From: Eubacteriales bacterium
GTDB taxonomy: Bacteria; Bacillota; Clostridia; Oscillospirales; CAG-272
Direction: 5' to 3'
DNA length: 57,539 bases
Assembly (NCBI GenBank): GCA_051867815.1
Contig: JBJDZD010000053.1
Coordinates: forward strand, 1 to 57,539
The translations under genes and the position numbers were made by a program. The notes beneath the pieces were generated by a model. The model had not been told where the DNA came from. It ran no database searches and saw nothing but the letters and a program-made list of their open reading frames with translations. Shown here in pieces: positions 8,389 through 56,341 of this stretch (positions are counted from its first letter, which is position 1; each line of letters begins with the position of its first letter).

Positions 8389-8542
8389 ATCAAAGCGGAC
8401 AGCCTCGCACATGGGACCGTCCGCTTCCATATTATCCCTGTTTTACAATAATAATTGATATAAATGTGAAGATGGGTTGAAGTTGGTCATGTATAATATA
8501 ACGTGAAAAATGATGAATGCATGAAAGGAACTGCATAATCCC

Positions 8543-11443: not shown

Positions 11444-11474
11444 GAGTCAAAAGCTCCTTGAAGGCTTTTGACTC
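11444..11474. terminator. bidirectional rho-independent terminator between convergent genes
   Basis: GAGTCAAAAGC-tccttgaag-GCTTTTGACTC with an A-run upstream and a T-run downstream. It overlaps the stop codon of the minus-strand gene. Confidence 0.75.
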
Positions 11475-27279: not shown

Positions 27280-27327
27280 GATGAACTCCTTTATCTGTAA
27301 TTTTTGATGAATACTGCTCAAAGTTCT

Positions 27328-27355
27328 GCCGAAGAAGCCCGTGGGCTTCTTCGGC
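27328..27355 (-). terminator. stem-loop downstream of the tRNA ligase gene
   Basis: GCCGAAGAAGCCC-gt-GGGCTTCTTCGGC, a 13-bp stem. No clear U-tract. Confidence 0.5.
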
Positions 27356-27369
27356 AAGTAAAGCGTTTA

Positions 27370-41105: not shown

Positions 41106-41119
41106 AACTGATTTGATTG

Positions 41120-42304
41120 TTAGAGACCGAGCTTTTTGAGCATTGCTTGCGTGTCGCTTCGTCCCTCTGCGGTAATGCTGTGATTTATTCTGATCTCATT
41201 GGCAATGCGCTTGGAGGTCGTTCCGCGAAACAGACGGAACCAGCGGTGAACCTGACAAAAAGGAAGCAAAAGCCGGTGCTTTTGAAGGATGGGGTAGTCG
41301 TATTTGATGTGGTCGTAGGGCAGGAAGAGCCTTGAGAGCAGGTAGCCGATGCGGCCTTTCCTTTCCGCGCGGTTCATCTTAACTCGGTTGGCTGTGTTTC
41401 CGTAGATGCCGCCGCCCATTATAAAATCCTCTATACGCGCGAGGATGTCGGGGTCGTCGTATTCGGGGGTAGTGTTGCCGAACCATTTATTTGCCAGCTG
41501 ACGCATGGCGTTCTCGAAGTCGGCGTAGCCGCCTTGGCAGACGAGCGCGTGCGCGGCATCGGCATCAAAGCCGGGGCAACGGTTGCGAAGAACGTAAATA
41601 TCCATCACGGTGCGAATACCGCAACCGCCGTAAAGAAAATGCTTTACCATGTGCGCAATATGATAGAAATAGGCAAAATCAAACGGAAGCTCCATGCGGT
41701 GCGCCGACCCCTCGGCGGGGACTGCAACGTCCCAAACGCGGCGCAGTATTTTTGCCGCCTCGGAGTGATCCTTTTCTTCTGCAAGCGTGAAATGCAATTC
41801 AAGGTGAACGCCGTGCGGAGAAACGAGCTTAACGTCGTGTCCGCCCTCCTTGAGCTTGGTGTACGAAAGGCGTTCTGTCAATTCCCGGCATGCGAGGCTC
41901 AGCTGCTCGCGCTTGATGAGGATATCAACGTCACAGCTCGTTCGCATTTCGGGCACGGGATAGTATTTGCTGAGCATCGCGCCCTTGAGGAGGATGTAAT
42001 CAACACCCAGCTCCTCAAAGAATGAGGAAAGCTCCGCAAGAGCGTAGGTTCTGCCCTCGTAGCGGTAAGCCGCCGCGATAAGGGCACTTTTGTAGCTGTC
42101 AGCGATGGGAGTGCCTGCACCGGCACCGATTCGGTAGAGAACGGAGCCGACCATGTGCTGAAGGTCGTGGGGGGAAGAAAGATGAAAGAGCGCGCAGAGA
42201 ACGTTCGGGTCGTCGAGAGACCGAATCTCATCCTCGCTGAGAACATCCGTTGGTGCCGTTTCGCATAATTCAATTTGAAGAAGCTTAATAAGAAGTTCTC
42301 TCAT
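41120..42304 (-). CDS. NTP_transf_5-like nucleotidyltransferase family protein
   Basis: LKGAMLSKYYPVPEMRTSCDVDILI resembles the signature of the uncharacterised nucleotidyltransferase family. Confidence 0.55.
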   Translation of the reverse strand: MRELLIKLLQIELCETAPTDVLSEDEIRSLDDPNVLCALFHLSSPHDLQHMVGSVLYRIGAGAGTPIADSYKSALIAAAYRYEGRTYALAELSSFFEELGVDYILLKGAMLSKYYPVPEMRTSCDVDILIKREQLSLACRELTERLSYTKLKEGGHDVKLVSPHGVHLELHFTLAEEKDHSEAAKILRRVWDVAVPAEGSAHRMELPFDFAYFYHIAHMVKHFLYGGCGIRTVMDIYVLRNRCPGFDADAAHALVCQGGYADFENAMRQLANKWFGNTTPEYDDPDILARIEDFIMGGGIYGNTANRVKMNRAERKGRIGYLLSRLFLPYDHIKYDYPILQKHRLLLPFCQVHRWFRLFRGTTSKRIANEIRINHSITAEGRSDTQAMLKKLGL

Positions 42305-42316
42305 TCGGACCTCCGT

Positions 42317-42778
42317 TTAAGTATTGACCGAGCGGTGCAGTTTGCCGTAAACGGCGAAGATGAAGGGGCGGCAGAACCTTGTGGGATACCAAAGAGCGTC
42401 GCGAAGCTTATATACAAAGCAGTCTGCCCGGCGCGTTTTGCCCTTCCGCGTTACGGCGACGACTTCGGCGAGTGCCTGATCGGGATTTATGATCTCGCAC
42501 CACGACTGCGCATCGCCGTTCATGAGCATTCGTCCGTCCGGAAGGCACTTTCTCACGCGGTGAAGGACAAAGGAGCCGTTTTCCCTGCGGAAAAAGACTA
42601 TCCGGCCGCGCTTATATGCGCTTTTTTTCTCAAGCCACACCGTATCCGTGCCTTCCTTAAGGAAGGGAAGCATGCTTGAACCCGTTACGACGACGGGTAT
42701 AGCGGCGCCGTCGGAGAGGAGAGCGGCAAGCTCATCTCCGGAGTGTTCGGGGTCAATTATCTTGATTTTTTCGTTCAT
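42317..42778 (-). CDS. S24/S26 (signal-peptidase-I / LexA-like) serine peptidase
   Basis: TGSSMLPFL nucleophile motif, RGRIVFF, and the LHRVRK Lys region. Confidence 0.6.
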   Translation of the reverse strand: MNEKIKIIDPEHSGDELAALLSDGAAIPVVVTGSSMLPFLKEGTDTVWLEKKSAYKRGRIVFFRRENGSFVLHRVRKCLPDGRMLMNGDAQSWCEIINPDQALAEVVAVTRKGKTRRADCFVYKLRDALWYPTRFCRPFIFAVYGKLHRSVNT

Positions 42779-42819
42779 TGTGACATTAGAGCGACGGTAA
42801 GAGTCGCCATGGCTCAGCG

Positions 42820-44313
42820 TTAATTCTTGTATGAGAGGTGTGCCGTTTTGGGACGGCGTCTTTTCTTCGGCTTGCCGTCACCGTAGCTGTAACCGTAGCC
42901 GTAATTATAATCGTAGCCGTAGTAGCCGTAGCCGTAACCGTAGCCGCGTGCGCCGGAGCTTACACCGTTGAGGATACAGCCGATGACGGGAACATTTGCG
43001 GAGATAAGCGCGTCAAGGACGGAGCGGATGCGGTTCGTGCGCACCATATCCTGCTTTATAACGAAGATGGCGGCGTCCGCTACCTGAGCGATGAGCGCCG
43101 GCTCCGAGGTGATGCCGATCGGAGAGGTGTCGATTATTACGTAATCGTATTCTCCGCGCAGACGCTCGATCAGGGTCTGAAGCCTGCTTACGTCGAATAT
43201 CTTCCAAAGGGAATGCCTTTTGCTGTTGAAGTTGAGAACGTCGAGCGAAACGGAAGAATTGACCTCGTATTTCGTGATAATCTCAATGTCGTCAGTGTCC
43301 GGCATTTCCGGTTTTTCGTCCTGACAGAGGCGGAAATTGACGTTGGGATTTCTTACGTCCGCATCAATGATGATTACTTTTTTGTTCATCATGGCAAGAG
43401 AAACGGCAAGGTTTGAGGATACGGAGGTCTTACCCTCGCCGGGAGCGGCACTTGTTATCATGATGACCTTGCGCCCGTCACAAGCCGATATAATGGAGTT
43501 TCGCAGGGCGCGGAAGGCTTCAAGATAGCCGTCACCGATGAGGGGATTGTTTATCATGATGGAGCGGTTTATCTCCTTGTTGTAACGCTTGAACGTTACG
43601 CTCGGTAGAGTACCGAGACAGCTTTGGTTGAGCTGAGTGCGGATGTCGGAGCGCTCGCGCACGGTCTTTCTCAGCATGACGTAGGCAAAGACCCATACAA
43701 GACCGACGACGAATCCGATGATGGCGCCCTTGAGGGTTTGGGTGCGGTAGGAAAACTGATTTGAAGGTGTCGTCGGAAGCACCGGCTCGGTCAGAATATT
43801 GAGCTTCGTGTTTCCTATGACGTGCTGAGCGACCTCGGGGTATTTGCGAATGACGGACTGAAGCACGTCATACGTCAGCTGTGGTGCGGAGCCTGTGGCG
43901 GTGATGGTGAACATATTGGTTCCCTTGACCACGGATGCTGTGAGCACGCAGGGAAAATAGCTGAGTCCGAGGTCGTTGCAGACCACCTCCTGCAGGATAT
44001 AGCTCTTTATGATGCTCGGGAAGGTCGAGGAGAGGCGTGAGGCGGTGATGCGGTTGGTTGCAAAGGACTGCGAGCTTAAGCCCAAGCCGCCGGACATTTG
44101 CGTTTGCACCGTAAACGTGACGGACGCCTGATATACGGGAGTAAAGTTTACGTAGCTCCTCACGAACATTACTCCGGCGAAGAGGATGGCAAGGGCGACG
44201 CAAAGCCACCAGAATCTCAAAAATCCCATCCAGAAATGCGCAATATTCAGTTTTTGAAGCTGCTCCTGCTCGGAGGAGATCCTGTTTTCACTTGAATTCT
44301 TGGAATTACTCAT
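42820..44313 (-). CDS. fused Wzz-domain / BY-kinase (polysaccharide co-polymerase tyrosine autokinase)
   Basis: Two TM helices flank a periplasmic-type domain. Walker A GEGKTS, A' IIIDADVRNP, B VIIDTSP. C-terminal Tyr cluster GYGYGYGYYGYDYNYGYGYSYG. Confidence 0.8.
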   Translation of the reverse strand: MSNSKNSSENRISSEQEQLQKLNIAHFWMGFLRFWWLCVALAILFAGVMFVRSYVNFTPVYQASVTFTVQTQMSGGLGLSSQSFATNRITASRLSSTFPSIIKSYILQEVVCNDLGLSYFPCVLTASVVKGTNMFTITATGSAPQLTYDVLQSVIRKYPEVAQHVIGNTKLNILTEPVLPTTPSNQFSYRTQTLKGAIIGFVVGLVWVFAYVMLRKTVRERSDIRTQLNQSCLGTLPSVTFKRYNKEINRSIMINNPLIGDGYLEAFRALRNSIISACDGRKVIMITSAAPGEGKTSVSSNLAVSLAMMNKKVIIIDADVRNPNVNFRLCQDEKPEMPDTDDIEIITKYEVNSSVSLDVLNFNSKRHSLWKIFDVSRLQTLIERLRGEYDYVIIDTSPIGITSEPALIAQVADAAIFVIKQDMVRTNRIRSVLDALISANVPVIGCILNGVSSGARGYGYGYGYYGYDYNYGYGYSYGDGKPKKRRRPKTAHLSYKN

Positions 44314-44325
44314 TTGTTACACCGT

Positions 44326-45846
44326 TTATTCTTTGTCGGAATCGTTATTTGTGTATTCCGAATATTTGGAGTAGCTTTCGTAGGCTCCGTTCCGGTCGTA
44401 GCCGTAACCGTGCTTGCGGCCGTAGCCGTAGCCGTTATAGTAGCCGCCGTAGGCGCCGGATTCATCCGAGCCGAGCTGGCCGAGGAGGTTGAATTCCCTG
44501 TGAACGTCGTTGAGGATGCAACCGCAGAAGTTCCCGCTTTCGGAGAGCGAGAGAACGGCATCGTTGATTGCTGCGGTGTGGACGCAGTCCGTGCGGACTG
44601 CAAGCAGGGAACGGTCGGAATGCTGAACCAGACCGGCAACGTCCGCCGCGACGGAGAGTGGCGGCGTATCGATTATCAGGAAATCGTAATCGGATGCGCG
44701 CAGGGTGTCGAAAAACTGTCCCATACGGTCGGAATAAAGCCAATCCGCATAGTTGGCGTAGCTCTTTTTGTTCAGTGCGAGGTCAAGGCTCATCTGCTTG
44801 TATTGATGGAAACGGTAATCGGAGAGTGTTTTTGAACCCGAAAGGAGCGCGCCGAGGTCGTCGGTCACTTCATCACGCAAGCCGAAAACCTTGTGCAGCG
44901 CCGGCTTCTTGAAGTCCATATCCAAAAGCGCGACCTTGTGATTGCGGCTTGCAAGAGCGAGTGCAATGTTGGCGGCTATGGTAGATTTGCCCTCGTTTTC
45001 GCCAAGGGACGTGATAAGGAAGGTCTTTGCGCCTTCATTTCTCTGTATGTATTCAAGCTTCGTTGCGAGCTTGTGATAATGCTCCGTAAAGCGGAAGCTG
45101 GAAAACGCATTGGTTATCAAACGCGAGCTTTTTTTTCGTTTGAGCATATCCTTAAGGGTCAGATGAGGCTTTTCGTGGCCTATTATGCCGAAGAGAGAGG
45201 CATCTATCTCGTCGTGGAAGGTCTGCTCGTCCTTGACCGTATCGCGCATCAGCGAGATCCAGATTATGGCGACGAGAGCGACGAGTGCGCAGCCGAAAAC
45301 GGCAATGGAACGGTTCCGATCCGAAATGTGATTCGACGGGGATTTCGGAAGGTTGGGTTGGCGCATGATCTCAATGACGGAGTCCGAAAAGACTGCTTCG
45401 GAGATCTGCGGATATATCTCGAGGATCGAGGTAAGCTCCTTGTACGACAGCTCGGGGGACGGAGTCGTTACGCTGACGGTGAAAATGTTCGTGTTGCTCA
45501 GCACCGAGGAGGAAACGCTTCCGACGAAGCCGTCCATGCCCAAGTTGTCGGCGGCGTACGCCTTCATGGTCGGCTGAACGAATACGTTCGTGAATATTTC
45601 CGCCATTTCGGAGGAGGCATCGAGGTTGGCGTACGTATATGAAGCGGAATTCTTCAGGTTTACTATCAGGGTTGCCGAGCTTGTGTACATGGGGGTGTAC
45701 ATGCTGCCGTTCCACATATCGACCGACATAAAGCCGATGAGGGACGCAAGCACCACGACCCAGATGTTTTTTATGATATCGCGCAGTATGCTGTAAGGCT
45801 CAATATGAAGTTTTGCTTTGCTTGCCGATTTGCTCATATTCTGCAC
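44326..45846 (-). CDS. second fused Wzz-domain / BY-kinase
   Basis: Walker A GENEGKST, A' LLDMDFKKP, B LIIDTPP. C-terminal Tyr cluster YGGYYNGYGYGRKHGYGY. Confidence 0.8.
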   Translation of the reverse strand: MQNMSKSASKAKLHIEPYSILRDIIKNIWVVVLASLIGFMSVDMWNGSMYTPMYTSSATLIVNLKNSASYTYANLDASSEMAEIFTNVFVQPTMKAYAADNLGMDGFVGSVSSSVLSNTNIFTVSVTTPSPELSYKELTSILEIYPQISEAVFSDSVIEIMRQPNLPKSPSNHISDRNRSIAVFGCALVALVAIIWISLMRDTVKDEQTFHDEIDASLFGIIGHEKPHLTLKDMLKRKKSSRLITNAFSSFRFTEHYHKLATKLEYIQRNEGAKTFLITSLGENEGKSTIAANIALALASRNHKVALLDMDFKKPALHKVFGLRDEVTDDLGALLSGSKTLSDYRFHQYKQMSLDLALNKKSYANYADWLYSDRMGQFFDTLRASDYDFLIIDTPPLSVAADVAGLVQHSDRSLLAVRTDCVHTAAINDAVLSLSESGNFCGCILNDVHREFNLLGQLGSDESGAYGGYYNGYGYGRKHGYGYDRNGAYESYSKYSEYTNNDSDKE

Positions 45847-45847
45847 C

Positions 45848-46663
45848 TCACTCCTCTACGATGACGGTCGTAACCGCGTGGCTTGCGCGACCCAGACTGT
45901 CATTTACGCGGTAATGTATCTCGTAAACGCCGGGCTTTGAAAGGTCAAGGTTCGTATCCGTAATGATCTCAGCGGAGATATCGTTGCCGTCGTAGTCACG
46001 GCAGGAGATCATATTTGCGTCAATGTCGAAGCTGTCTCCGACCTTGAGGTAGGTAAGATACTGACCAAGCTCGAATTTCGGGGCGGAAAGACTGCGCTCC
46101 TCAATGTAAACGGGAAGCTCGATGCTGGTGACGTCGCCCTTGCTGTTGGTAACTCTGGCAAGGATCTTATATGCGCCTGCAACTGAGGTCGAATATTCAT
46201 CTGCCGTTATGATGACCCTGTTGCTGATGTCGCCGTCAATGGAGCAGGTCGCGCCGAGGAGCTTGCGGACGTCGGCAACCTGCGAAACGCCGAAAACAAG
46301 CGAGCCGGAAAGGGTGAAGCGCGGGCGTTCGTAATCGACGTACGTTATCTTTCTCGTGGCGGATGCAGTATGGTTGTCGCTGTCGCAAACGGCGTATTCA
46401 ACTATGCAAACGCCGATCTCGGTGAAACGCGAGATGGATTCCACTATGATCTTGTCGGTCAGATCACCGTCTTTTGCATCGTAAGCGGTAACGCCGACGA
46501 GCAGGTCGTCTTTCGTAGCCGATATGCTGACATTTAACATTTCATCCGCGACTGTGATCACGGGATAGGTCTTATCCGTATTTTGCTGTCCGACCTTAAA
46601 AAAGCAAAATAGGACGAGGGTGACGGAAAAAAGCACAAGCACGCTTGCTCGAAGTATCTTCAT
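45848..46663 (-). CDS. membrane-anchored protein with three Ig-like (DUF5011-type) repeats
   Basis: N-terminal TM segment. Repeated A.D..DGD(L/I)(T/S)...V...Y pattern. Confidence 0.55.
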   Translation of the reverse strand: MKILRASVLVLFSVTLVLFCFFKVGQQNTDKTYPVITVADEMLNVSISATKDDLLVGVTAYDAKDGDLTDKIIVESISRFTEIGVCIVEYAVCDSDNHTASATRKITYVDYERPRFTLSGSLVFGVSQVADVRKLLGATCSIDGDISNRVIITADEYSTSVAGAYKILARVTNSKGDVTSIELPVYIEERSLSAPKFELGQYLTYLKVGDSFDIDANMISCRDYDGNDISAEIITDTNLDLSKPGVYEIHYRVNDSLGRASHAVTTVIVEE

Positions 46664-46690
46664 ACTGCAACAACTCCTGTATATTTGAAA

Positions 46691-47431
46691 TTAACTGTAT
46701 AATTCGATTTTTTCGTTCTTAATGATGTGAAGGGGATTGATACTGACTAAGATGTCCGCGTAATCCTCGGAGATCTCCTCGCACATCCAGCGGTGAAATT
46801 CGTCAAGTGCCGGAGTGCGACGGTATGGGCTGTGGGCATCGCTGGCGGCAACGTCCGCAAGGTGCTCGCGGATCATCATATCCGCAACACGTGCGGCACC
46901 GTGCCCGAAGGCGCCGGCAATACTGCCCTTGTTCATCTGCAGGATCGCACCGGTTCGCTTCAGACGGTAAAGATTTTCCGTATCCTCGGCAACGAAAGCG
47001 TAGCGTTCGGGATGAGCGATGACGGGAACAAGACCTGCGGCGAATATTTCATTCAGGGCGGCGAAAACGGCGCGCTCGCTTATTAAGGGGTCAAACTCGA
47101 TAAGGGGATAAACGGTGCGGTTCAGCGTTAAGAGCCGCTCTGCCTTTAAGAGCGCGATTGCTTCAAGGTAGTCCTCGTCAAGATATATCTCCTGGCCGGG
47201 CAGAAGCTCCAGCCGGACTCCGGCATCCGAGAGGGCATTTCTCGCCTGATCAAAGGCGTCGGTAAGCTGTGCAAGACCGTAGCGACCGTCGGGATAAAAA
47301 TGCGGAGTACAGACTATGCATTCCGTTCCCCGTCGGGAAGCAAGTTCGGCCATTTTGACGGTTTCGTCCGGAAAGAACGCTCCGTCGTCAAGCCCCGGAA
47401 GTATATGGCAATGAATATCGTAAAATCTCAT
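46691..47431 (-). CDS. CpsB/CapC-type PHP-family protein-tyrosine phosphatase
   Basis: MRFYDIHCHILPGLDDGA N-terminal signature. Confidence 0.85.
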   Translation of the reverse strand: MRFYDIHCHILPGLDDGAFFPDETVKMAELASRRGTECIVCTPHFYPDGRYGLAQLTDAFDQARNALSDAGVRLELLPGQEIYLDEDYLEAIALLKAERLLTLNRTVYPLIEFDPLISERAVFAALNEIFAAGLVPVIAHPERYAFVAEDTENLYRLKRTGAILQMNKGSIAGAFGHGAARVADMMIREHLADVAASDAHSPYRRTPALDEFHRWMCEEISEDYADILVSINPLHIIKNEKIELYS

Positions 47432-47494: not shown

Positions 47495-47523
47495 ATTATA
47501 TCACACAATATTATATTTGTCAA
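47495..47523 (-). promoter_or_regulatory. consensus sigma-A promoter of the cpsB-led operon
   Basis: On the minus strand: TTGACA (47518-47523), 17-nt spacer, TGaTATAAT (47495-47500). Confidence 0.7.
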
Positions 47524-47559: not shown

Positions 47560-47826
47560 TTATTCGGTTACAAGCCCCGCCTCGCGAAGCATGACTGAGA
47601 AGGCGTCGTAGTCGGCGCGCAGTACCTGCTCGTCAACCTCGTATTCCTCAAGGAGGGACGCGATTATCTCGCTTTCGGTCAACCCATCGGAAAGACCCTT
47701 CCAAATAAACGCGCCGACCTCAGTCACCGAAAAAATGCCGTTTGATCGAAGAGCCGCCTCGCCTATGGGGATAAGGATATATTCACCCGCGACCTCACGG
47801 ATGACGATGTTCTTTTCAATCTTCAT
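47560..47826 (-). CDS. PqqD-family (RRE-type) peptide chaperone
   Basis: 88 aa. REVAGEYILIPIG...TEVGAFIWKGL...SEIIASLLEEYEVD is typical PqqD-family architecture. Confidence 0.7.
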   Translation of the reverse strand: MKIEKNIVIREVAGEYILIPIGEAALRSNGIFSVTEVGAFIWKGLSDGLTESEIIASLLEEYEVDEQVLRADYDAFSVMLREAGLVTE

Positions 47827-47828
47827 GA

Positions 47829-48929
47829 TTATTGCTCCTTGTATTTCTCGTAAACAAGTTTATTGTAATGCTTGGTCATACGGCAAACGTATTCGGGCAG
47901 AACGTCCGATCGGCCGCTTTCCGCAAAGCAGGCGGCGGCACAGGCACCGCACCTGACTTTTTGAGGGCAATCCGTACATTCCTTCGGCATCCGGATGGTC
48001 TTTGCAAATGCTTTGACGGCTTCCCAAGCCACCGTAAAGCCAAGCTCGCACACATTCCACCCCTCGTGCGGAAACATACCGCAGGGGAGCATTCTGCCGT
48101 CCCAGGTGACCCAGAAGGCGGTCGAACCGGCTCTGCAACGAATGCCCTCGCTGACGTCGGAGACGCAGATGTCGTCATCGGGTATGCACGCGGCGGCGTT
48201 GAGCCTGAGCTGCTCCGGGGTGAGAACCTGCTCGCGGCATTTGAGCAGATAGTACGCCGCTTCCTCGGCGTTGAAACGCGCCGGGGAGATGCCGTACTTG
48301 TCCTTGTCGATGCGTACGGGAGGATACATATAGGTGGTTGCCTGGACGGGAACGCCGAGCTGTGCCGCAAAGGCGTGGATCTCTTCGATCCGGTCGGCGT
48401 TGTAGGGGGTGACGGTGGAGTTGAGCTTCACGGAAACACCGGCACGGTGTAAGCGGATGATGTTATTTTTGACCGTTTCCGCCATCGGGCGGCCGCAGAG
48501 CCTTTCGTAGCCCTCATCGGTGCATGCGTACAGCGAAATATTCATGCGCAGGGGCGGATGCTTGACGAAAAACTCAAACATTTCGTCGTCAACGAGGGAT
48601 GCGTTCGTGTTTATTGAGATGAGAAGCCCCATTTCGATCAGAGCGCCGTAAATCTCTTTGAAATCAGGGCGGAGAAGCGGTTCGCCGCCGGTCAGAAGGA
48701 GAAATACCATGCCGCTGTCCCTTGCGGCGCGGCCAAGCTTTATCCATTCGGACGCGCTTAAAAGCTCCTTGTGGTTCGGCGTGTGAACGTAGCACATTTT
48801 GCAGTTGAAATTGCAGTTCGAGGTAAGCTCGAAGTTGCCGGCTATGGGCAGACCGAGTGCGGCACCCTTGGCGTGGATGAAGCGCGACCACATAGGCTCC
48901 GCACCGCTGAGATCTATTTTCTTATCCAT
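47829..48929 (-). CDS. radical SAM / SPASM-domain peptide-modifying enzyme
   Basis: CX3CX2C motif CNFNCKMC (48792-48815). C-terminal Cys clusters CRAGS...PCG and CTDCPQKVRCGACAAAC. GGAGA RBS before MDKKIDL. Confidence 0.8.
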   Translation of the reverse strand: MDKKIDLSGAEPMWSRFIHAKGAALGLPIAGNFELTSNCNFNCKMCYVHTPNHKELLSASEWIKLGRAARDSGMVFLLLTGGEPLLRPDFKEIYGALIEMGLLISINTNASLVDDEMFEFFVKHPPLRMNISLYACTDEGYERLCGRPMAETVKNNIIRLHRAGVSVKLNSTVTPYNADRIEEIHAFAAQLGVPVQATTYMYPPVRIDKDKYGISPARFNAEEAAYYLLKCREQVLTPEQLRLNAAACIPDDDICVSDVSEGIRCRAGSTAFWVTWDGRMLPCGMFPHEGWNVCELGFTVAWEAVKAFAKTIRMPKECTDCPQKVRCGACAAACFAESGRSDVLPEYVCRMTKHYNKLVYEKYKEQ

Positions 48930-49660
48930 TTCAATTTCTCCAATTCTCTTGCCGCGTCGGGGTCGTTTATGCAGCTGTAGCAGGAAACGTCCGCTTCGCT
49001 TATCAGATCGGCGACGAGGGCGGTAATGCAGGCGCACGAAACGGGGTCGCTCTCGTCATACGAGCATTGGCAAACGATGTGCATGAAAAGCTCGTGCGGA
49101 CGGAGGGGAAGAAGCTCGTTGCGCTCGCCCTGCTTCAGCACCGTGACAAGACCGATCGGCGCACTGACATTGCGGCAGATACCCGATGTGCCGCAAACGT
49201 ACACTCCGTTTGCGTACCGGACGCCGTTTTTCCTTGATACGAGAACGCGGTCGCCGTTAATTATCTCGCCGCCGACGGTATTTACCCAATGTGACGCGAG
49301 AGTAGATTTTCCCGTTCCGCTCGGGGCGGTGATGAGGAGCGCGCGGCCGCCCGTGACCGCATATGCGGCGTGGAGTATGAAGGCGTCCTTTTCGATCATC
49401 AGGCAGGGCGCTTTAGCCAGCGACAGCAGATGAACGCCGTTTATTTTGCCTGCATTTTCGGGGTTTACGGGCAGGTAGACCGTGTTTTCGCGGCGTGTCG
49501 GCTCGACGGCCATGCCGCTTTTGCCGTCAATGAAGGCTTTCAGGGTGAAATCCGCCGGTACTTCCTCACCAACGAGAAAATTTTCCAGCTTTTCGTTAAG
49601 CGCAAGCGGAAAATCGGCTTCTATGGCAAAAACTATGCCCCCGAATGAATATTTACTCAT
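48914..49660 (-). CDS. HPr-kinase-related P-loop protein
   Basis: ITAPSGTGKSTLA P-loop in the C-terminal half, as in the HprK catalytic domain. The stop overlaps the radical SAM start by 16 nt. Confidence 0.55.
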   Translation of the reverse strand: MSKYSFGGIVFAIEADFPLALNEKLENFLVGEEVPADFTLKAFIDGKSGMAVEPTRRENTVYLPVNPENAGKINGVHLLSLAKAPCLMIEKDAFILHAAYAVTGGRALLITAPSGTGKSTLASHWVNTVGGEIINGDRVLVSRKNGVRYANGVYVCGTSGICRNVSAPIGLVTVLKQGERNELLPLRPHELFMHIVCQCSYDESDPVSCACITALVADLISEADVSCYSCINDPDAARELEKLKWIRK

Positions 49661-50444
49661 CGTAGGTAACGAACATGATCTCCGTCATGTGGGAATATGC
49701 GTGGGGGGCGTAGGCGTTGTAGGTCGCGCCGGCTTTCAGACCGCCCATGATGCGGAAACGGTATGTGATGCCGCCGAAGTAACCGCCGTCCGCCTTGGAT
49801 TTGTAATAGACAACGATATCGCCTGTAATATTCTTATCGGATGTGTTTGTTACGGCTATGGTGCCGGTTTGGCAGGTAAAGGACAGCGTGTCCTCGTGCA
49901 GGGAAGGCTCGGAGCGGAAGAACACCTGATAGCCGACCTCAAGCTCCAGGGAGAAAATCTTTTCGGGTGCCTTTATTGCTTCCTCGTTGCAGACGTATAT
50001 GGACTTCAAGGGTGGAAGCGTGGTCAATTCAAAATCGTAATCCTTGCCGTTGACGGTCAGGGTCACGGTCATGTATTCGAGGGTTTGCCCGGTGGTATTC
50101 GTAAAAGCCGCAACGAGAACGTTCTCGATTTCGCTGTCGCGGCCGTCCTCGGGGAAATAGCCCGTTGCGGTGTAAAGACGGGAGATCTGTATGCCCGACG
50201 CCGCCTCGGCAGGCAACGAAATCCCCTCAAGAGCCACGGGCGAGAGCTGTGAGGACGAGGGATTATTCCGATCGGGGGCAAAGGTGTCGTCAAGGATGCC
50301 GCTTTGCGTGGGGTCCGGCTCACTTGGGAGTTTGCAGGACGGCACAATTGCGGCAAGCGCAAAGCAAGCCGCAATCAAAACGAACGCGACCAAGCCCTCA
50401 ATAAGCCCCTGCGCCTTCTGCGCTTTCTTTATGTTTTTCTTCAT
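49653..50444 (-). CDS. N-terminally anchored extracytoplasmic protein, uncharacterised
   Basis: 263 aa. Single TM segment LIEGLVAFVLIAACFALAAIV. AAGGA RBS. Confidence 0.5.
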   Translation of the reverse strand: MKKNIKKAQKAQGLIEGLVAFVLIAACFALAAIVPSCKLPSEPDPTQSGILDDTFAPDRNNPSSSQLSPVALEGISLPAEAASGIQISRLYTATGYFPEDGRDSEIENVLVAAFTNTTGQTLEYMTVTLTVNGKDYDFELTTLPPLKSIYVCNEEAIKAPEKIFSLELEVGYQVFFRSEPSLHEDTLSFTCQTGTIAVTNTSDKNITGDIVVYYKSKADGGYFGGITYRFRIMGGLKAGATYNAYAPHAYSHMTEIMFVTYDE

Positions 50445-50461
50445 GATGATTCCTTAACGTC

Positions 50462-50492
50462 AGGCCCTGCCTGCCCAAGGCAGACAGGGCCT
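50462..50492 (-). promoter_or_regulatory. strong intra-operon stem-loop immediately after the small-peptide ORF
   Basis: AGGCCCTGCCTGCC-caa-GGCAGACAGGGCCT, a 14-bp stem with one mismatch. No U-tract. Confidence 0.55.
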
Positions 50493-50506
50493 TGTATGCA
50501 GTAATA

Positions 50507-50758
50507 TCAGGAGCCGAAGATTACTTGAGTCCCGTACGGTACGTGATAGCAGATTCCTCCCGGATTGGACTGCGTATCACAACCTGCGGTTGGTCCGGCA
50601 AACAATACGGAGTCGTTACCGAAAATATCGCCAACAGGGTATCCGCAACTCGTTTCGCTACTGTATGTATGAGTATCAAGCGTGCAATCGCCTGCAATGC
50701 TGGTGCTCATTTTGAAATTTACGAAGTCGATATCGGGTTTTATATAGATTTTCTTCAT
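50507..50758 (-). CDS. 83-aa Cys-containing peptide ending in Ser; candidate RiPP precursor
   Basis: MKKIYIKPDIDFVNFKM...GDC..SC..GC..IC...VIFGS. No signal peptide. GGAGA RBS 5 nt upstream. Confidence 0.45.
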   Translation of the reverse strand: MKKIYIKPDIDFVNFKMSTSIAGDCTLDTHTYSSETSCGYPVGDIFGNDSVLFAGPTAGCDTQSNPGGICYHVPYGTQVIFGS

Positions 50759-50775: not shown

Positions 50776-51699
50776 TCAGTTTTGCGCGGCCTGCGCAGAG
50801 GATGCAACACCCTCTGCGTCGTAAGCCGTGACTTCGACGGGATCTTCGCCGTCAACGCAGACCGCGAAGATCCGTTTTACGGTTTCCGTGCCGTCGTGTT
50901 CAAGATCAACGACGGTCTCGGTAATGTAATGCTTGATGATATTGCCGTTTACGATGACGTACTCAACGTCGTCGGAAACTTCAATGATGAGCTGATTCTT
51001 GCCGTCCGCGCGTCTGCCAAGCTCTGCATCGAACTTCTCGGGAGCGAAGTGACGGTCTGCAAGACCCTGCATGATCTTGCTTGCCTCGTAAGAGCTGTCG
51101 CTTTCGACGCTGTTATTACCGAACAGGTTGCCGAGAATGGAGCTGATGAGGAAGCCGAGCAGGTTGCCGGAGTTATTTGTGGCGGCAATCGGCTCGGATG
51201 CCGTGCCGTCGCAATCGTAAGCAACGATTTCAAGCTCGCTCTTTGCGGAAGCTGTATACAGCCACACGGTGTATTCGCCGCCGTCGATATCAACGCCGAA
51301 TTCCTTTTCGAGGTTGCGCATCGAGCCGAAGCGGGCGGTTACCTGATAGGTCGAGGTTACCTTTTGGAGTGCCGTGCCGTTTACGGTGAGGCTTGCAACG
51401 TCATTCGAGGTTACGATGAGGAGGGATTCGATTGCAAATCTGCCGATGCCTATGCTCTTCTTCTTGTACCGGATGTATTCAGGCTCGAAAATGGGGTTGG
51501 CAAGGCGCTTTGCGTGATCGATAACATCCTCGTCAACGACGAGCTTGACATAGTGTGCTGCTTCTTCCTCAACCTCGGAGTCTGCCTCTGCAGGCTCATA
51601 GGCAACGGGTGCGGATCCATCTTCGGAAGCTGCACAAAACAGCAGCTTCGCCGCAAACCTCGGGGAATATGGAAACGTCGTCGCTTGCGCAGGAAACAT
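50776..51699 (-). CDS. hypothetical protein, or the frameshifted C-terminal part of the giant vWA protein
   Basis: 307-aa ORF whose first 104 nt overlap the 3' end of the 1510-aa ORF in the +1 frame. No internal Met for about 125 codons and no clear RBS. Confidence 0.4.
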   Translation of the reverse strand: MFPAQATTFPYSPRFAAKLLFCAASEDGSAPVAYEPAEADSEVEEEAAHYVKLVVDEDVIDHAKRLANPIFEPEYIRYKKKSIGIGRFAIESLLIVTSNDVASLTVNGTALQKVTSTYQVTARFGSMRNLEKEFGVDIDGGEYTVWLYTASAKSELEIVAYDCDGTASEPIAATNNSGNLLGFLISSILGNLFGNNSVESDSSYEASKIMQGLADRHFAPEKFDAELGRRADGKNQLIIEVSDDVEYVIVNGNIIKHYITETVVDLEHDGTETVKRIFAVCVDGEDPVEVTAYDAEGVASSAQAAQN

Positions 51700-54600
51700 C
51701 CGATACGACCTTATCTGCCTTCTCGGTGACCTTAATACCGGTCAGCGAGAGGATGTTTTCGCAGTTGCCTGCCGCCGCACCGTTGGAAACGGTGATGACG
51801 GGAGTGGACCATTCCTTGGCTTCTTCGTTGTAAGTCCAAAGGGATGCGAGGTTCGTAAGCTCGTAGTACATATCCGTCGCGGTTGCGATATTCGTGGAGG
51901 TGTTGATGCTGATCCCATTGCCGTCGTTGCAGTTGACGTTGAGGACGGCGGAGGTGCCGTATGCGAGCTTGACGCCGATCATGGCCTTATCCGGATTGAA
52001 GTTTGTTACGAGCTTGAAGGAGATGGACTGACCGCCTGCGAGGTAGACCTCGTTGTTTGGCCCGGGGTTGGCGTAATCGTAGGGATTGCCCGTGGAAGCG
52101 ATACCGTCAACGAATACAACGCCGTCAAGCACGTCGGTGGTATTGGGATCGGTGACTGTCAGGCCTTCGAGGATCTTATCTCTGATGGAAACGTAGGTGG
52201 GATTGTACTCGCCGTCGTCCTTGTATGCGTTGTTTATACTGTCGCTTGTGTTATTGGGATCAACGGGGTCGTAGATCCTGATGGAATCGAGGACGAAGCC
52301 GTACTCACCTGCTCCGGTGTGGTCGAAGGCGGAGCTGTAGCCTGCCTTGATTCTGACGGTATAAGTGCCCCATTCAAGGTCTGTGACCTTAATGACGGGT
52401 ACCTGATAGATAGCGCCCTTGTCGGTTTCCGTCCACTCGCCGGTTTCTTCGTTGTAGTCGTATCCGTAGTAGTTATCGACCATGAGGCTCCTGACGGTCA
52501 CGCCATCCTTATCGAAGACCTGAACGAGTATAAGACCCGTTGTGTTGTCGGTCAGAGAGATGATGTCGAAGCCGGTGCCGGTGAACTCAAATACGGCGTA
52601 GGGGCAATTTGCGCCGCCGGTTGCGGCATTGACCGTTACCTTCTTTGCGTTGCCGAGGCTGTAGCTTGTGGAGACGGAATAAATACCGTCGAAGCCGTAG
52701 ATGTAGTTGCGGTCAATGGAAGCCGTGTTGTACTCGCCGGGGCGGTCCTCCCCCTGAGAGGGATTGGAATTGCCTGCCGTGCCGTAAGTACCGAGGTCGA
52801 ACCATTTACCGATTCCGTCCTCACCGCTTGCCGCAGAATCCACGAATCGTACGAATGTTTCCTCGAAATAGATCGTGGTAGCCGGAATGATGGTCAGAGT
52901 GTCGTAGTAGTAGCCCCGGTTTGCAAAGGGATTACCCGAGGCATCGTTGCCCTCAAACCTGACGGCGTATGTGAACTGCTCCGAGTCGGGCATTGACACG
53001 TCGCTCAGCTGATAAACGAGCGTACCGTTTGCGGAAAGCGTTACCTTGCCGTACTTGCCGGTGTAGGACTGCCCGTAGCTTGCCACGTGGTTGGATTCCG
53101 TCCAGAACTGTTCGTCGCCTATATAGCCGAGAGTGGAGCCGCCGACGATGTCTTCAAAGGCCTTGTTGTACTCGCCGACTGCAACGAGCTGACCGTTGGT
53201 ACCGAACATATCGTTTGTGAGAACGTTGACCTCAACCGGAAGCCCGTAGTCGATGATAACGGTATCCGGGAGAGCCTGAGGAGTCCAAAGAACTGCGAAC
53301 CATACGACGGTATGAGTGTAGTCGTTGGCGCTGTTGGGCGGTGTGGTGGCGTTTGTGAAGGCATTTGCGTTACCGAGGAGGTACCGGGTGACATAGGTGG
53401 AAGCCGCCTTGCCGTCGCCCGAGGTGATTTCCCAAGAACCGGTTGAGTTGGAGTTGATCGTGATCTTATAAACGGAGGCCGCGTCGTAGAGTTCGTATCC
53501 GGTGGGAAGAACACCCAAGGACCGGACTTCAATGGAGGCAACTTGGTCTATGTTGTTAAGGAATATTTCCTCATAGACGACGGGGGAGGTGACTGCGATC
53601 TTGTTAGCGAAGGAGCCGGTCTGCCCCGTTGCCTTGTTGACGATTACCTCACCGGCGGAGTTTACGAGATAGAAGGCGTATGAAACGTTCGCGCCTGCCC
53701 AAGCCATGGTGGGCGAGGTGGTTTCGATCTTGCAGGGATTGCCGAGATAGTTGTCGTAATAAAGAGTAGCATAGTTGTTGGTTGCGTAGGAGCCGGGAGC
53801 CTTTTGGCCTTCCAGGGAGCCGTCGAGGTAGACGTAGTAGCGGATGGCCTGCTCGTTGGTCTTAACAGTACCTACGCTCCAATGGAAGGATTCAGCCGGA
53901 AGGGTGCGCGTAAGGGAAGTGCCCTTGATGAGTGTGGTTACGGGGGATGTGTTGGTGTTGTACAGGAAGCTTGCGGCATAGATGACGCCCTTCTTGTAAA
54001 CCACCGTCTTATCCGTGGTAGTGTCAAGGGATACATCCTCGCCTGAGGCGTTTCTGTCAACTTCGATGAGGATGTAGTCGTCCTCGTCGGTGATGGCATA
54101 AGTGCCGTCCGCTTGGAGGGTAGCACCGTAGATGCCGTCGCCGTCAGCGTCGATCTTCGTTGAGTAAGCTCTTGTGCCTGCGTAGTTGAATACGATTGCT
54201 TCTGTGACCGTGCCGGTATCCTGACGGGTACCGATGGAGTGGAGCTTATCTTCGGGAGAGCCTTCCGCGATCCATTCCTGACGGGTGTAGATATCGTATT
54301 CAAGCACCTCGATGACGGAGGCGACAGACTTATCGATCAATGTGCTGCCGGTGCTTTTGTATTCGTGTGTACCGAGCAGAAGGTTGAAGCTGTCGCCCAT
54401 CCGGTCTTCGAAGTGAGCGTTGCTTGCCGCATATGCGATCTCCTCGCCGATGGCGTCGAATGCGTGGTCAAGCTCAGCGGCGGAGGTTACCTTATAGAAA
54501 TACTGAGTGCTGTCGTTTGCGTCATGCGTTGCAATGGAAGCGATGGATTTATCCTGATATTCAAGATTGGTATTTCCGTCGTCCTGAGTATCGAAGGAGA

Positions 54601-56128
54601 TTGCGAACATCTTTGCGCCGAGGCCGGGGAGGCTGTACATATTCTTAAGACCCTGCTCGCTGCCCTGTGCATCCCTGAGGACGTCAACAAGACCCTCGGT
54701 GGACTTACGGATAACGTTGTAGTACTGCTCGGGGTCACCCTTGACGGCGTTTGCCATACGATGCTCGTTTACATAGCCGTCACCGTCGGTATCTGCGGTG
54801 TTGAAGTAGTAAAGATGCTCGGTGCAGTTCATAAGACTTTTCCAGTAGCTTTTATCCATCGTTGTGGTGATGGAGCCGGGCAATGGCTGACCGTCTGTGA
54901 ACGTCGGGGCGCCGCCGACTATCCATTTCTCCCAAGATTCGGATCGACCCTGGGAGTGGTAGTAGTTCCACTGCATTGTCGCACCGTCGGACATGAAGAT
55001 GACGTAGAGGTCACGTTCATCACCCTTGAGAAGGTTCCTCTGCTGCTTGGCGTACGCCATTTGATAGATGGCGTCCATTGCGTAGTCGTAGTTGGTACCG
55101 GAGTGGCAAGTGAATGAGTAGCTTTCGGGAAGCTCGGTGGCCTTCACGAAAGCATCTGCGCTCAGTTCCCCGCTGCCGGTGAAAATACTTGAATTGGAAT
55201 TTGCGTTATAGTCAGCATCTGCGGTGCGGTCGTTTGCATCGCGGTCGTAGGGTGTACCAGATACTGTATGCCTTTCGCCGAAGAAGCCGTTGAAGTCAGC
55301 AATGGCAACGTCAATGTCAAGCACTTCACCGTCTGTGCCGGGTGTCTTGAGCTTCGCAATAAGGTTTGCAAGAGAAGTCTCAAGAACGCTTACGCGCTTA
55401 TACCGGGAGCCGCAGGAGCAGCCCTGCTTGTGACATCTTACACACCAGGTCGCCATGGAAGAAGACGTATCGAGCATGATGATGAGGTCTGCGCCCTTCT
55501 TGGAAGCGACGCCGGAGACCGCAAGCTCGACCTGAGCAACACCGGATGCCTGAAAATCTATGCCGGTTGCGGTCTTGGAGACCTTGATCGCGCCTTCGTC
55601 GGGGTATTCGGGGTAGTTATTTACGTAAACTTCGGAGACATGGAGGGTGAAGCCGCCGCCGCTCGTACTGCTGCCGTAGGTGATGTAAAGGCCGGACTGA
55701 TCGCCCGCGGTCTTTGTCCCCGAGTGGTTGAGCATGTTGAGAGTGAGCGGTACTTCTGCGATTGCATCTTCGCCCTCGTACTTAACCTTGATCATAACCG
55801 GGTTGCCGTCCTTATCGGTAATGGCGGCGGAGCCGGTGGAATACCGATCGACATAACCTTCGGAGGGCCATTCGATGCTCTCTGTCTTTCGTGGCTGAAC
55901 GCAAACGTTGACGGTGCCGAGGTCATTGCCATTATAGGAGATATTAAGGGTGGGGCAGTCGGCCGTATTAAAGCCGCCGTCCAATACGTATATCGGCTCT
56001 GAGGTCGAGCTTGTCGCCGATGCAAGATCTTCCGCCATGGCGACTATCACGCTTGCAGGCAAGACGGATATGATCATCATGAGGGTGAGCAACCAAGCGG
56101 TCAGTCTCCTGAAAGAAAATTGTTTCAT
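51596..56128 (-). CDS. giant secreted vWA-domain surface protein
   Basis: Signal peptide MKQFSFRRLTAWLLTLMMIISVLPASVIVAMA. MIDAS-type DLIIMLDTSSSM. AAGGAGG RBS. No LPXTG motif seen. Confidence 0.8.
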   Translation of the reverse strand: MKQFSFRRLTAWLLTLMMIISVLPASVIVAMAEDLASATSSTSEPIYVLDGGFNTADCPTLNISYNGNDLGTVNVCVQPRKTESIEWPSEGYVDRYSTGSAAITDKDGNPVMIKVKYEGEDAIAEVPLTLNMLNHSGTKTAGDQSGLYITYGSSTSGGGFTLHVSEVYVNNYPEYPDEGAIKVSKTATGIDFQASGVAQVELAVSGVASKKGADLIIMLDTSSSMATWCVRCHKQGCSCGSRYKRVSVLETSLANLIAKLKTPGTDGEVLDIDVAIADFNGFFGERHTVSGTPYDRDANDRTADADYNANSNSSIFTGSGELSADAFVKATELPESYSFTCHSGTNYDYAMDAIYQMAYAKQQRNLLKGDERDLYVIFMSDGATMQWNYYHSQGRSESWEKWIVGGAPTFTDGQPLPGSITTTMDKSYWKSLMNCTEHLYYFNTADTDGDGYVNEHRMANAVKGDPEQYYNVIRKSTEGLVDVLRDAQGSEQGLKNMYSLPGLGAKMFAISFDTQDDGNTNLEYQDKSIASIATHDANDSTQYFYKVTSAAELDHAFDAIGEEIAYAASNAHFEDRMGDSFNLLLGTHEYKSTGSTLIDKSVASVIEVLEYDIYTRQEWIAEGSPEDKLHSIGTRQDTGTVTEAIVFNYAGTRAYSTKIDADGDGIYGATLQADGTYAITDEDDYILIEVDRNASGEDVSLDTTTDKTVVYKKGVIYAASFLYNTNTSPVTTLIKGTSLTRTLPAESFHWSVGTVKTNEQAIRYYVYLDGSLEGQKAPGSYATNNYATLYYDNYLGNPCKIETTSPTMAWAGANVSYAFYLVNSAGEVIVNKATGQTGSFANKIAVTSPVVYEEIFLNNIDQVASIEVRSLGVLPTGYELYDAASVYKITINSNSTGSWEITSGDGKAASTYVTRYLLGNANAFTNATTPPNSANDYTHTVVWFAVLWTPQALPDTVIIDYGLPVEVNVLTNDMFGTNGQLVAVGEYNKAFEDIVGGSTLGYIGDEQFWTESNHVASYGQSYTGKYGKVTLSANGTLVYQLSDVSMPDSEQFTYAVRFEGNDASGNPFANRGYYYDTLTIIPATTIYFEETFVRFVDSAASGEDGIGKWFDLGTYGTAGNSNPSQGEDRPGEYNTASIDRNYIYGFDGIYSVSTSYSLGNAKKVTVNAATGGANCPYAVFEFTGTGFDIISLTDNTTGLILVQVFDKDGVTVRSLMVDNYYGYDYNEETGEWTETDKGAIYQVPVIKVTDLEWGTYTVRIKAGYSSAFDHTGAGEYGFVLDSIRIYDPVDPNNTSDSINNAYKDDGEYNPTYVSIRDKILEGLTVTDPNTTDVLDGVVFVDGIASTGNPYDYANPGPNNEVYLAGGQSISFKLVTNFNPDKAMIGVKLAYGTSAVLNVNCNDGNGISINTSTNIATATDMYYELTNLASLWTYNEEAKEWSTPVITVSNGAAAGNCENILSLTGIKVTEKADKVVSDVSCASDDVSIFPEVCGEAAVLCSFRRWIRTRCL

Positions 56129-56306: not shown

Positions 56307-56341
56307 AATAAAAAAGAGGTGCCATCCGAGGGACGGCACCT
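56307..56341 (-). terminator. rho-independent terminator of the esterase gene
   Basis: AGGTGCC...GGCACCT stem followed on the minus strand by CTTTTTTATT. Confidence 0.7.

Follow-up and report, generated by a model that had tools for sequence, protein, structure and literature searches.

Which product is made by a block of five minus-strand genes (47560–50758) in which a small Cys-containing peptide stands beside an HPr-kinase (HprK)-like P-loop protein, a radical SAM/SPASM enzyme and a PqqD-family protein? The block lies in a 57,539-nucleotide stretch of DNA from a Eubacteriales bacterium (GenBank assembly GCA_051867815.1, contig JBJDZD010000053.1), and this whole stretch is referred to as the window. 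A sequence-only reading of the window had proposed an operon for a ribosomally synthesised and post-translationally modified peptide (RiPP), whose product would be both cross-linked and phosphorylated at its C-terminal Ser, and had not recognised it as a described class. A computational follow-up supports the operon. The block is probably the precursor and enzyme core of a RiPP-type cassette that is conserved, bears a radical SAM enzyme and is related to the clusters for Linear Polyphosphorylated Peptides (LPP). LPP clusters lie within the capsule loci of Bacilli (Popov et al., Nat Commun 2026;17:6633, May 2026; PMC13381572). Judged from the sequences, cross-linking together with phosphorylation is most likely what the cassette performs.

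The five co-oriented genes carry the coordinates and motifs given in the sequence-only reading, including overlaps at 49653/49660 and 48914/48929 and a 2-nt gap at 47826/47829. They are listed here together with the parts of the precursor, where RRE stands for RiPP recognition element.

50507–50758, minus strand: precursor peptide gene (83 aa, 4 Cys, C-terminal VIFGS), with the ribosome-binding site AGGAGA 6 nt upstream
Within 50507–50758, minus strand: precursor leader MKKIYIKPDIDFVNFKMSTSIA, with a YxxPxI motif of the RRE-binding type
Within 50507–50758, minus strand: precursor core, with Cys25, Cys38, Cys60, Cys70, a CYHVP motif and the C-terminal Ser83
49653–50444, minus strand: p263 (263 aa), with a transmembrane helix, a disordered linker and two beta-sandwich domains, without catalytic signature
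48914–49660, minus strand: HprK-like P-loop protein (248 aa), with Walker A APSGTGKST and an invariant NGD; homologues are assigned to the Pfam ScmC family
47829–48929, minus strand: radical SAM/SPASM enzyme, with CX3CX2C and 7 conserved C-terminal Cys, without a fused RRE
47560–47826, minus strand: discrete PqqD-type RRE (88 aa), Pfam PF05402

The open reading frame (ORF) of the radical SAM enzyme spans 47829–49037, and its true start is Met37 at 48929, which is kept in 74 of 76 homologues. Domain scans with Pfam and NCBIfam covered a greedy set of ORFs of the window, with a few ORFs of less than about 160 aa left out. Neither a lasso cyclase (Asn-synthase-like) nor a Transglut_core3 protease nor an ABC exporter was found among the ORFs scanned, which bears out the earlier remark that lasso cyclase and B2 protease are missing, and for lack of these two a lasso peptide was rejected as a candidate product. 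No curated NCBIfam cut-off was reached by any protein of the cassette.

A word-indexed search of 5.8 billion proteins identified one homologue cluster of the 83-aa peptide, 43 % identical and likewise 83 aa long, and in the contigs of this cluster, as in the window, the giant VWA protein is followed by the peptide, a ~300-aa protein, a protein of the ScmC family and the radical SAM enzyme. ORFs were called in 83 non-redundant loci and searched with the proteins of the window, and peptides were then collected with a hidden Markov model (HMM), giving 54 distinct family members (residue counts below refer to the 50 short peptides, C-terminal counts to all 54). The family consensus is MKKxYxKPxIxFExFxLSxxIA(G/A/S)x0-1C … C … F … C … CYH(V)P…(I/V/L)FxS-stop. 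Kept in the leader are Y5 (49/50), K7 (44/50), P8 (48/50) and A22 (47/50), and the start of the window leader, MKKIYIKPDI, corresponds to the N-terminal [Y]xxP RRE-binding motif of the LPP type. Core residues are kept to a similar extent, with C25 in 49/50, C38 in 41/50, C60 in 45/50, C70 in 47/50, Y71 in 48/50 and F81 in 39/50 peptides, and the invariant Cys25 stands three residues after 'IA'. The middle of the core is hypervariable across the family, and the C-terminal module CYHxP…FxS is kept, with Ser as the last residue in 49 of the 54 unique peptides. Four Cys are present in 33/50; intact sequences always have at least 3, and nearly all peptides have 3–5. Conservation of the 83-aa ORF beside homologous enzyme sets had been named in advance as a test of the proposal, which is passed, and the finding of a 54-member precursor family in conserved synteny also rules out a chance ORF. 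A lipoprotein or Sec signal was considered as well, as 'IAGxC' is lipobox-like, yet the peptide has no hydrophobic h-region.

The window holds one such gene only, and no second precursor copy was detected in it. Other loci vary more widely. Some relatives without the giant protein carry 140–180-aa peptides with the same leader and a C-terminal Ser. Long variants of 131–178 aa with the leader MK(K/R)xYxxP were found in L029, L030 (Anaerostipes butyraticus), L049 and L087 (Faecalicatena contorta); three long-peptide loci have no giant gene upstream, and all of the long peptides end in Ser (…YQLS, …YNVS, …KALS) except that of L087 (131 aa, …ASV). Three tandem peptide genes whose products end in …FNSL and not in …FxS are present in L045 (Selenomonadaceae; 7260–8851). 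Position 18 of the leader (50705–50707 in the window) is Ser in 23, Thr in 9, Asp in 6 and Asn in 5 peptides and Glu in Desulfosporosinus-type leaders (…EExFA), an acidic-or-phosphorylatable pattern.

Of the 83 loci examined, mainly from gut and rumen Clostridia, most carry the cassette. Genes for the kinase-like protein were found in 80 of these loci, for the radical SAM enzyme in 74, for PqqD in 61, for the giant protein in 53 and for p263 in 40; the peptide of the blastp cluster was present in 37 (more by HMM), an ABC exporter in 28, a signal peptidase I (SpI)-like protein in 17 and an NTP_transf_5 protein in 16. Kinase and radical SAM genes adjoin in most loci where both were found. As the same order occurs in dozens of unrelated metagenome and genome contigs, the gene set is not due to chance. 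At least 494 relatives of the kinase-like protein were found in the protein collection, all annotated as 'hypothetical', and an alignment-based scan identified relatives in 404 species-representative genomes, mostly Clostridia, whereas a genome scan with the single kinase-like sequence gave no matches. Host families include Oscillospiraceae, Lachnospiraceae, Acutalibacteraceae, Peptostreptococcaceae and Selenomonadaceae, and Clostridium celatum DSM 1785, Anaerostipes butyraticus JCM 17466 and Faecalicatena contorta are cultured carriers.

The radical SAM enzyme was assigned from its Cys pattern and from its nearest relatives. The motif CX3CX2C (CNFNCKMC; C75/C79/C82) and seven C-terminal Cys are conserved in 75–76 of 76 homologues, as is Cys181. 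Pfam matched Radical_SAM (4.7e-25) and, under its cut-off, SPASM (2.3e-3). The solved structures nearest by sequence are those of SkfB (8.7e-13), PqqE and SuiB, which are peptide maturases and support the earlier view of a peptide-modifying enzyme. The curated maturase families (StsB, SkfB, PapB, WgkB and others) were not reached, with 40–64 bits against cut-offs of 300–650. An enzyme of the anaerobic-sulfatase-maturase type acting on a neighbouring enzyme was rejected, since a sulfatase is missing and peptide maturases provide the nearest structures.

The PqqD protein matched Pfam PF05402 with an E value of 6.9e-17. Measured in bit scores, it reached 7–19 with LPP RREs, 16–24 with lasso RREs and 48–70 with the 'other RRE' proteins of clusters 4 and 9 of the published sequence similarity network (SSN). 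PqqD alone is no proof that the peptide is the substrate of the radical SAM enzyme, because the LPP RRE was shown to serve the peptidase and is assumed to recruit the kinase.

More direct comparison is offered by loci of the cluster-4 type, which were fetched from Desulfosporosinus, Peptococcaceae and one Oscillospiraceae metagenome-assembled genome (MAG), five of them being analysed. In four (L092–L095), the genes for PqqD, radical SAM enzyme, kinase, SpI-like protein and ABC protein form one tight operon. An MsbA-like exporter, found in 28 of the 83 related loci, adjoins the cassette in these same four of five, and in some of them NTP_transf_5 and BY-kinase genes are close by. Short precursors of two classes, with one leader type, occur in these loci: in those of the Desulfosporosinus type, genes for Cys-containing precursors adjoin the radical SAM gene, whereas genes for Cys-poor, LPP-like precursors adjoin a second kinase gene. 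Among the comparative data, this split speaks most strongly for Cys-bearing peptides as substrates of the radical SAM enzyme, in one pathway with kinase, peptidase and exporter, and L092–L094 can be regarded as a natural dissection of two modification routes. The order PqqD, radical SAM, kinase, SpI, ABC was seen at about 5000–12000 in L092 (Peptococcaceae MAG) and L093–L094 (Desulfosporosinus hippei DSM 8344 and Desulfosporosinus sp. HMP52). The second kinase paralogue is present in L092 and L094; Cys-poor precursors lie upstream, in L092 directly before the second kinase gene.

For the P-loop protein, NCBIfam gave weak matches to HprK_rel_B (1.7e-7), HprK_rel_A (8.6e-5) and ScmC (1.5e-3). 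Its AlphaFold model (pLDDT 93) found HPr kinase/phosphorylase (3tqf, 1knx, 1ko7, 1kkl) and the related PEPCK fold as best matches in a Foldseek search against the PDB, with a probability of 1.0 and an E value of ~1e-6; a comparison of the kinase alignment with PDB profiles gave marginal matches only. The Walker A and NGD motifs are invariant in 21 diverse members of the family, and NGD presumably occupies the position of the catalytic acidic pair of HprK. In PsmK, an HprK-like kinase of the pseudomycoidin type, D158/D159 are the metal-binding pair (PMC6993621). The supplement of PMC13381572 names the SpI, RRE and precursor of an LPP locus from Paenibacillus contaminans, and this locus was used for comparison. 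A 263-aa gene at its kinase position gives the NCBIfam matches of LPP kinases and aligned with the window kinase family over the full length in hhalign (98.3 %, E 1.5e-14); phmmer with the window kinase gave no match to this gene, and profile comparison alone did. By its motifs and modelled fold, the P-loop protein is a member of the HPr kinase/phosphorylase superfamily, and the remote, full-length homology to a gene typed as LppK agrees with its earlier description as HprK-like.

The conserved unit is larger than the block to which the sequence-only reading confined it. The giant gene directly upstream, although part of the conserved unit, was omitted there, and so were an SpI-like peptidase and an NTP_transf_5 protein 5–6 kb downstream. 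The further features are the following.

51596–56128, minus strand: giant surface protein, N-terminal 1510 aa, with signal peptide, VWA-type motif and a weak GBS104-like Ig match
50776–51699, minus strand: giant surface protein, C-terminal ~300 aa (307-aa ORF), in another frame; tblastn with the intact L007 homologue
50462–50492, minus strand: post-peptide hairpin, a perfect 14-bp GC-rich stem of attenuator/stabiliser type, no T-run
56317–56341, minus strand: intrinsic-terminator-like hairpin, 11-bp stem and T-run, closing the upstream esterase gene
47495–47523, minus strand: sigma-70 promoter, 12/12 consensus with extended -10, between PqqD and CpsB
46691–47431, minus strand: CpsB phosphatase, capsule-type module
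45848–46663, minus strand: Ig-like surface protein, capsule-type module
44326–45846 and 42820–44313, minus strand: two Wzz/BY-kinase-like proteins, capsule-type module
42317–42778, minus strand: SipW/archaeal-type SpI-like protein (153 aa), GSSMLPF…HR, candidate leader peptidase and LppS counterpart
41120–42304, minus strand: NTP_transf_5 nucleotidyltransferase, PF14907, LppN/PsmN counterpart
39738–41105, minus strand: LytR-CpsA-Psr (LCP) family protein, recurrent neighbour of the cassette

Giant genes encode about 1000–3000 aa and are the immediate upstream neighbours of the peptide gene in 43 of 55 cases. The window giant has a signal peptide, a VWA-type DxSxS motif (LDTSSSM) read from the translation and a weak match to the Ig domain of GBS104-like tip pilins; its homologues likewise possess a signal peptide, together with VWA domains and tip-pilin Ig domains of the GBS104-like type. 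A family-specific region of ~400 aa is common to the giants (residues ~1020–1480 in the window) and gave marginal matches only against PDB profiles. The C-terminal anchors, seen in the giants of L001, L031, L035, L048, L055, L060, L064, L070, L081 and others, vary and comprise dockerin, SLH, a transmembrane segment or a short amphipathic helix rich in W/F and basic residues, the last in many giants (…GGWLGKWFN, …SKLFGR, …NNIISRWF). Tandem duplication of the giant-peptide pair was noted in L031 (3460–3798 and 8783–9118). Compared by tblastn with the intact homologue of L007, the window giant is split by a change from frame -2 to -3 between 51719 and 51597, which is either real (pseudogene or phase variation) or an assembly error. 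As the giant is missing from the long-peptide variants, it is not obligatory. The AlphaFold model of p263 (pLDDT 85) consists of an N-terminal transmembrane helix (residues 12–36), a linker and two beta-sandwich domains, and a fold search gave generic tandem beta-sandwiches only (transglutaminase C-terminal barrels, RbmA, FN3; TM-scores 0.13–0.20), from which no function follows.

A new transcription unit opens at the giant gene, past the terminator at 56317–56341, and this terminator and the promoter at 47495–47523 mark off giant to PqqD as one unit from a second one formed by the capsule-type block. Within the first unit, the hairpin behind the peptide gene has a folding energy of -31.9 kcal/mol (z -4.15). 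Equivalent hairpins 3' of the peptide gene were found in 40 of 54 related loci compared with 19 of 270 control windows, with medians of -24.9 and -11.7 kcal/mol, respectively. The hairpin is conserved as a feature and not as a sequence, and T-runs follow it in some relatives and not in the window. RiPP operons are usually laid out as precursor, attenuator and enzymes, and the hairpin looks like a RiPP-operon attenuator or an mRNA stabiliser. By analogy, giant plus peptide would be the unit of high expression here.

The SpI-like protein carries the motifs GSSMLPF and HR and matched TIGR02228 under its cut-off (5.4e-6). It scored 25–31 bits with LPP peptidases (SSN cluster 1; one at 8) and 39–56 bits with those of clusters 4 and 9. 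NTP_transf_5 was assigned by Pfam (PF14907, E 1.3e-37). Both genes probably belong to the unit, and in L044, L046, L064 and L074 the SpI-like, NTP_transf_5 and ABC genes are interspersed among the core genes. In the window, 39738–47431 holds CpsB, the Ig-like protein, two BY-kinase-like proteins, SpI-like protein, NTP_transf_5 and LCP, followed by a CapD-like enzyme, and no glycosyltransferase, flippase, polymerase or ABC exporter was found anywhere in the 57.5 kb. Elsewhere in the window, five large ORFs (461–828 aa; 30368–32854, 20119–22389, 12905–15286, 11473–12915 and 25972–27357) had no Pfam match at E <= 1e-5.

Taken together, a pathway can be proposed that begins with co-transcription of the giant and peptide genes, an architecture seen in the window, with the hairpin presumably limiting read-through to the enzyme genes. 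PqqD would bind the YxKPxI leader, which carries the motif known from LPP and lasso RREs, and the radical SAM/SPASM enzyme would cross-link the Cys-rich core, most likely by Cys thioethers. The HprK-like kinase would (poly)phosphorylate a Ser, for which the near-invariant Ser83 is the best candidate and the leader-core junction, as in LPP, an alternative. NTP_transf_5 may add a hexose to the phosphate, as is done by PsmN (PMC6993621), and the SipW-like peptidase, in analogy to LppS, may remove the leader near 'IA'. Export, in many relatives via an adjacent MsbA-like pump, might then let the product act at the surface alongside giant, p263 and capsule module.

Several observations weigh against this pathway. 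The NCBIfam models of AhbD, MoaA and NirJ2 score as well on the radical SAM enzyme as those of PqqE and MftC, all far under their cut-offs, and as these similar weak scores come from peptide and non-peptide families alike, sequence alone is not decisive for its family. That thioethers form is inferred only from the Cys content of the core, from the SPASM domain and from the nearest relatives. The site of phosphorylation is ambiguous: LppK adds 1–4 phosphates to core Ser3 (PMC13381572), and Cys25 stands at the equivalent position in the window family. Peptides linked to the radical SAM gene in loci of the Desulfosporosinus type carry hA-x-x-S-x-C and do not end in Ser. In the window, a separate promoter precedes the SpI-like and NTP_transf_5 genes, which lie at the distance given above, and only ~20 % of the 83 loci have them close to the cassette; the window has no exporter, and its copy of the giant gene, being frameshifted, may be defective. 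Of the hybrid product that had been proposed, the combination of cross-link and phosphorylation stands as the best reading, whereas the C-terminal site is unproven. It fits the conserved terminal Ser and pseudomycoidin-type clusters, where PsmK and PsmN act on the C-terminal Ser with poly-phosphate and then hexose (PMC6993621), but not LPP Ser3 and the Ser-less Desulfosporosinus ends.

A different role has been considered for the 83-aa product, namely that it is no free natural product and serves the giant VWA surface protein as a small cross-linked partner, subunit or anchor. The giant keeps its place directly upstream of the peptide gene even amid shuffled genes, the conserved hairpin closes the giant-plus-peptide unit, the ~400-aa region is found in all giants, p263 as a membrane-anchored double beta-sandwich is co-conserved, and the kept C-terminal module is unusual when compared with the variable cores of antibiotic RiPPs. 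A precedent is QhpC of quinohaemoprotein amine dehydrogenase (QHNDH), which is cross-linked in the cytoplasm by the radical SAM/SPASM enzyme QhpD, exported by a dedicated ABC pump after leader cleavage, and assembled with large secreted subunits of the same operon (PMC7876137). However, the giant is missing from L029, L030, L049 and the Desulfosporosinus-type loci, and the hypervariable middle of the core resembles secreted bioactive peptides, so that we regard this role as a tentative possibility. Equally tentative is the more specific idea that the RiPP machinery (RRE, radical SAM/SPASM enzyme, HprK-like kinase, NTP_transf_5 and SipW-like peptidase) makes no antibiotic and builds part of the cell surface. 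Its product would be a small protein, cross-linked and phospho-(glyco)sylated, docking on, priming or anchoring a giant VWA/pilin-like adhesin. Docking might run via the metal site of VWA to the phosphorylated C-terminus, and might link the adhesin to the capsule/LCP machinery of gut Clostridia.

It is improbable that the peptide is an LPP-type phosphopeptide only, with PqqD serving kinase and peptidase alone and the radical SAM enzyme acting on the giant, p263 or a capsule glycan or lipid. Such a division of labour would be in line with the part played by the LPP RRE, which has no radical SAM enzyme at its side (PMC13381572), with AhbD, MoaA and NirJ2 being among the best NCBIfam matches, and with the setting of the cassette in polysaccharide loci. 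What speaks for the peptide as substrate is that 74 of the 80 loci with a kinase gene also carry a radical SAM gene, with most apparent gaps at contig ends, that Cys precursors and Cys-poor ones are sorted to the radical SAM gene and the second kinase gene in Desulfosporosinus-type loci, that 3–5 Cys are nearly always present in the family, that the nearest solved radical SAM structures are peptide maturases, and that the enzyme has no RRE of its own, which fits the use of a discrete one.

Least probable of all is that the HprK-like protein is no peptide kinase and instead assists the radical SAM enzyme as an ATP-dependent scaffold or accessory factor. Its gene almost always adjoins the radical SAM gene, NCBIfam describes ScmC as defined within radical SAM/PqqD cassettes, its matches to curated kinase families are all far under their cut-offs, and proteins of the ScmC family are not known to phosphorylate. 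All this is outweighed by the invariant Walker A and acidic NGD, the HPr kinase fold and the full-length homology to the gene at the LppK position of a published LPP locus, where the kinases are themselves typed TIGR04249/ScmC (PMC13381572), and by LppK (PMC13381572) and PsmK (PMC6993621), which were experimentally shown to be Ser kinases.

Compared with known systems, the cassette shares with paeninodin- and pseudomycoidin-type clusters a [Y/W]xxPx(L/I) leader, a discrete RRE, a kinase of the HprK-like kind, NTP_transf_5 and a precursor ending in Ser. It differs from them in lacking the macrolactam cyclase and the B2 cysteine protease, and in having a 60-aa Cys-rich core and a radical SAM enzyme. 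Systems of the sactipeptide/ranthipeptide type (SkfB, CteB, PapB) likewise combine CX3CX2C and a full seven-Cys SPASM cluster with a Cys-rich peptide that has an N-terminal leader, whereas in the window the RRE is separate, the precursor is longer, kinase, SpI-like peptidase and NTP_transf_5 are added, and the enzyme stays far under all curated cut-offs. QHNDH resembles the cassette by analogy only, in its small Cys-rich polypeptide with leader, its radical SAM/SPASM enzyme and its large secreted partner; no sequence relationship was shown, quinone cofactor, dehydrogenase and subtilisin-like protease are absent from the window, and QHNDH has no kinase. The SynChlorMet cassette (TIGR04248–TIGR04251) brings together the HprK-like ScmC, radical SAM/SPASM enzymes and a PqqD homologue, but the window cassette has one radical SAM enzyme and not two, occurs in other taxa and has an identified precursor. 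A true SynChlorMet cassette was rejected, as the equivalog cut-offs were missed by far (ScmC 18/125, ScmD 16/100, ScmE 56/400 and ScmF 50/400 bits).

The closest counterpart is LPP, which consists of a precursor with YxxPxVLxHQxIxFETxxS, the kinase LppK, the discrete RRE LppB, LppS, an MsbA-like exporter and NTP_transf_5 (PMC13381572). LppS is a SipW/archaeal-type signal-peptidase-like enzyme and cleaves after T-1 in an RRE-dependent manner, and the final product and function of LPP were not established in that paper (PMC13381572). Common to both are the leader MKKxYxxPx(V/I), the discrete PqqD-type RRE, the HprK-like kinase, the SpI-like peptidase and NTP_transf_5, a frequent setting in capsule loci and, in many relatives of the window cassette, the MsbA-like exporter; RRE and SpI of the window are closest to SSN clusters 4 and 9, which are listed yet not studied in PMC13381572. 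LPP kinases are typed TIGR04249/04352/04355, the domain table of the LPP paper has no radical SAM group, and radical SAM/SPASM is never mentioned in its text and supplements (PMC13381572). Differences lie in the radical SAM/SPASM enzyme, which is missing from the LPP co-occurrence table, in the leader of the window family, YxKPxIxFExFxLSxxIA(G/A/S)xC, without the HQ and FET of VLxHQxIxFETxxS, in a Cys-rich core with the kept CYHxP…FxS compared with variable LPP tails, in the co-conserved giant VWA protein and p263, and in the occurrence in Clostridia and not in Bacilli, with no exporter in the window.

From these sequence features (leader motif, exporter, RRE score group and extra enzyme), the window cassette is not LPP as defined, and the radical SAM/SPASM enzyme, being co-conserved, speaks against a product that is purely linear. 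The earlier impression that this is not a described class was partly correct: kinase, RRE, SpI-like peptidase and NTP_transf_5 in capsule loci match LPP (PMC13381572), and literature searches on HprK/RiPP, radical SAM, NTP_transf_5 and SynChlorMet found no description of the window cassette. If the proposed pathway is true, one peptide would carry both radical SAM cross-links and HprK-type (poly)phosphorylation, a pair of modifications so far not seen together, and the LPP family would extend into dominant gut anaerobes. The coupling to a giant adhesin-like protein and to capsule-regulation genes suggests a role of LPP-type peptides in surface, biofilm or adhesion biology. By analogy, the cassette would work like an LPP system fused with a maturase of the sactipeptide/ranthipeptide type.

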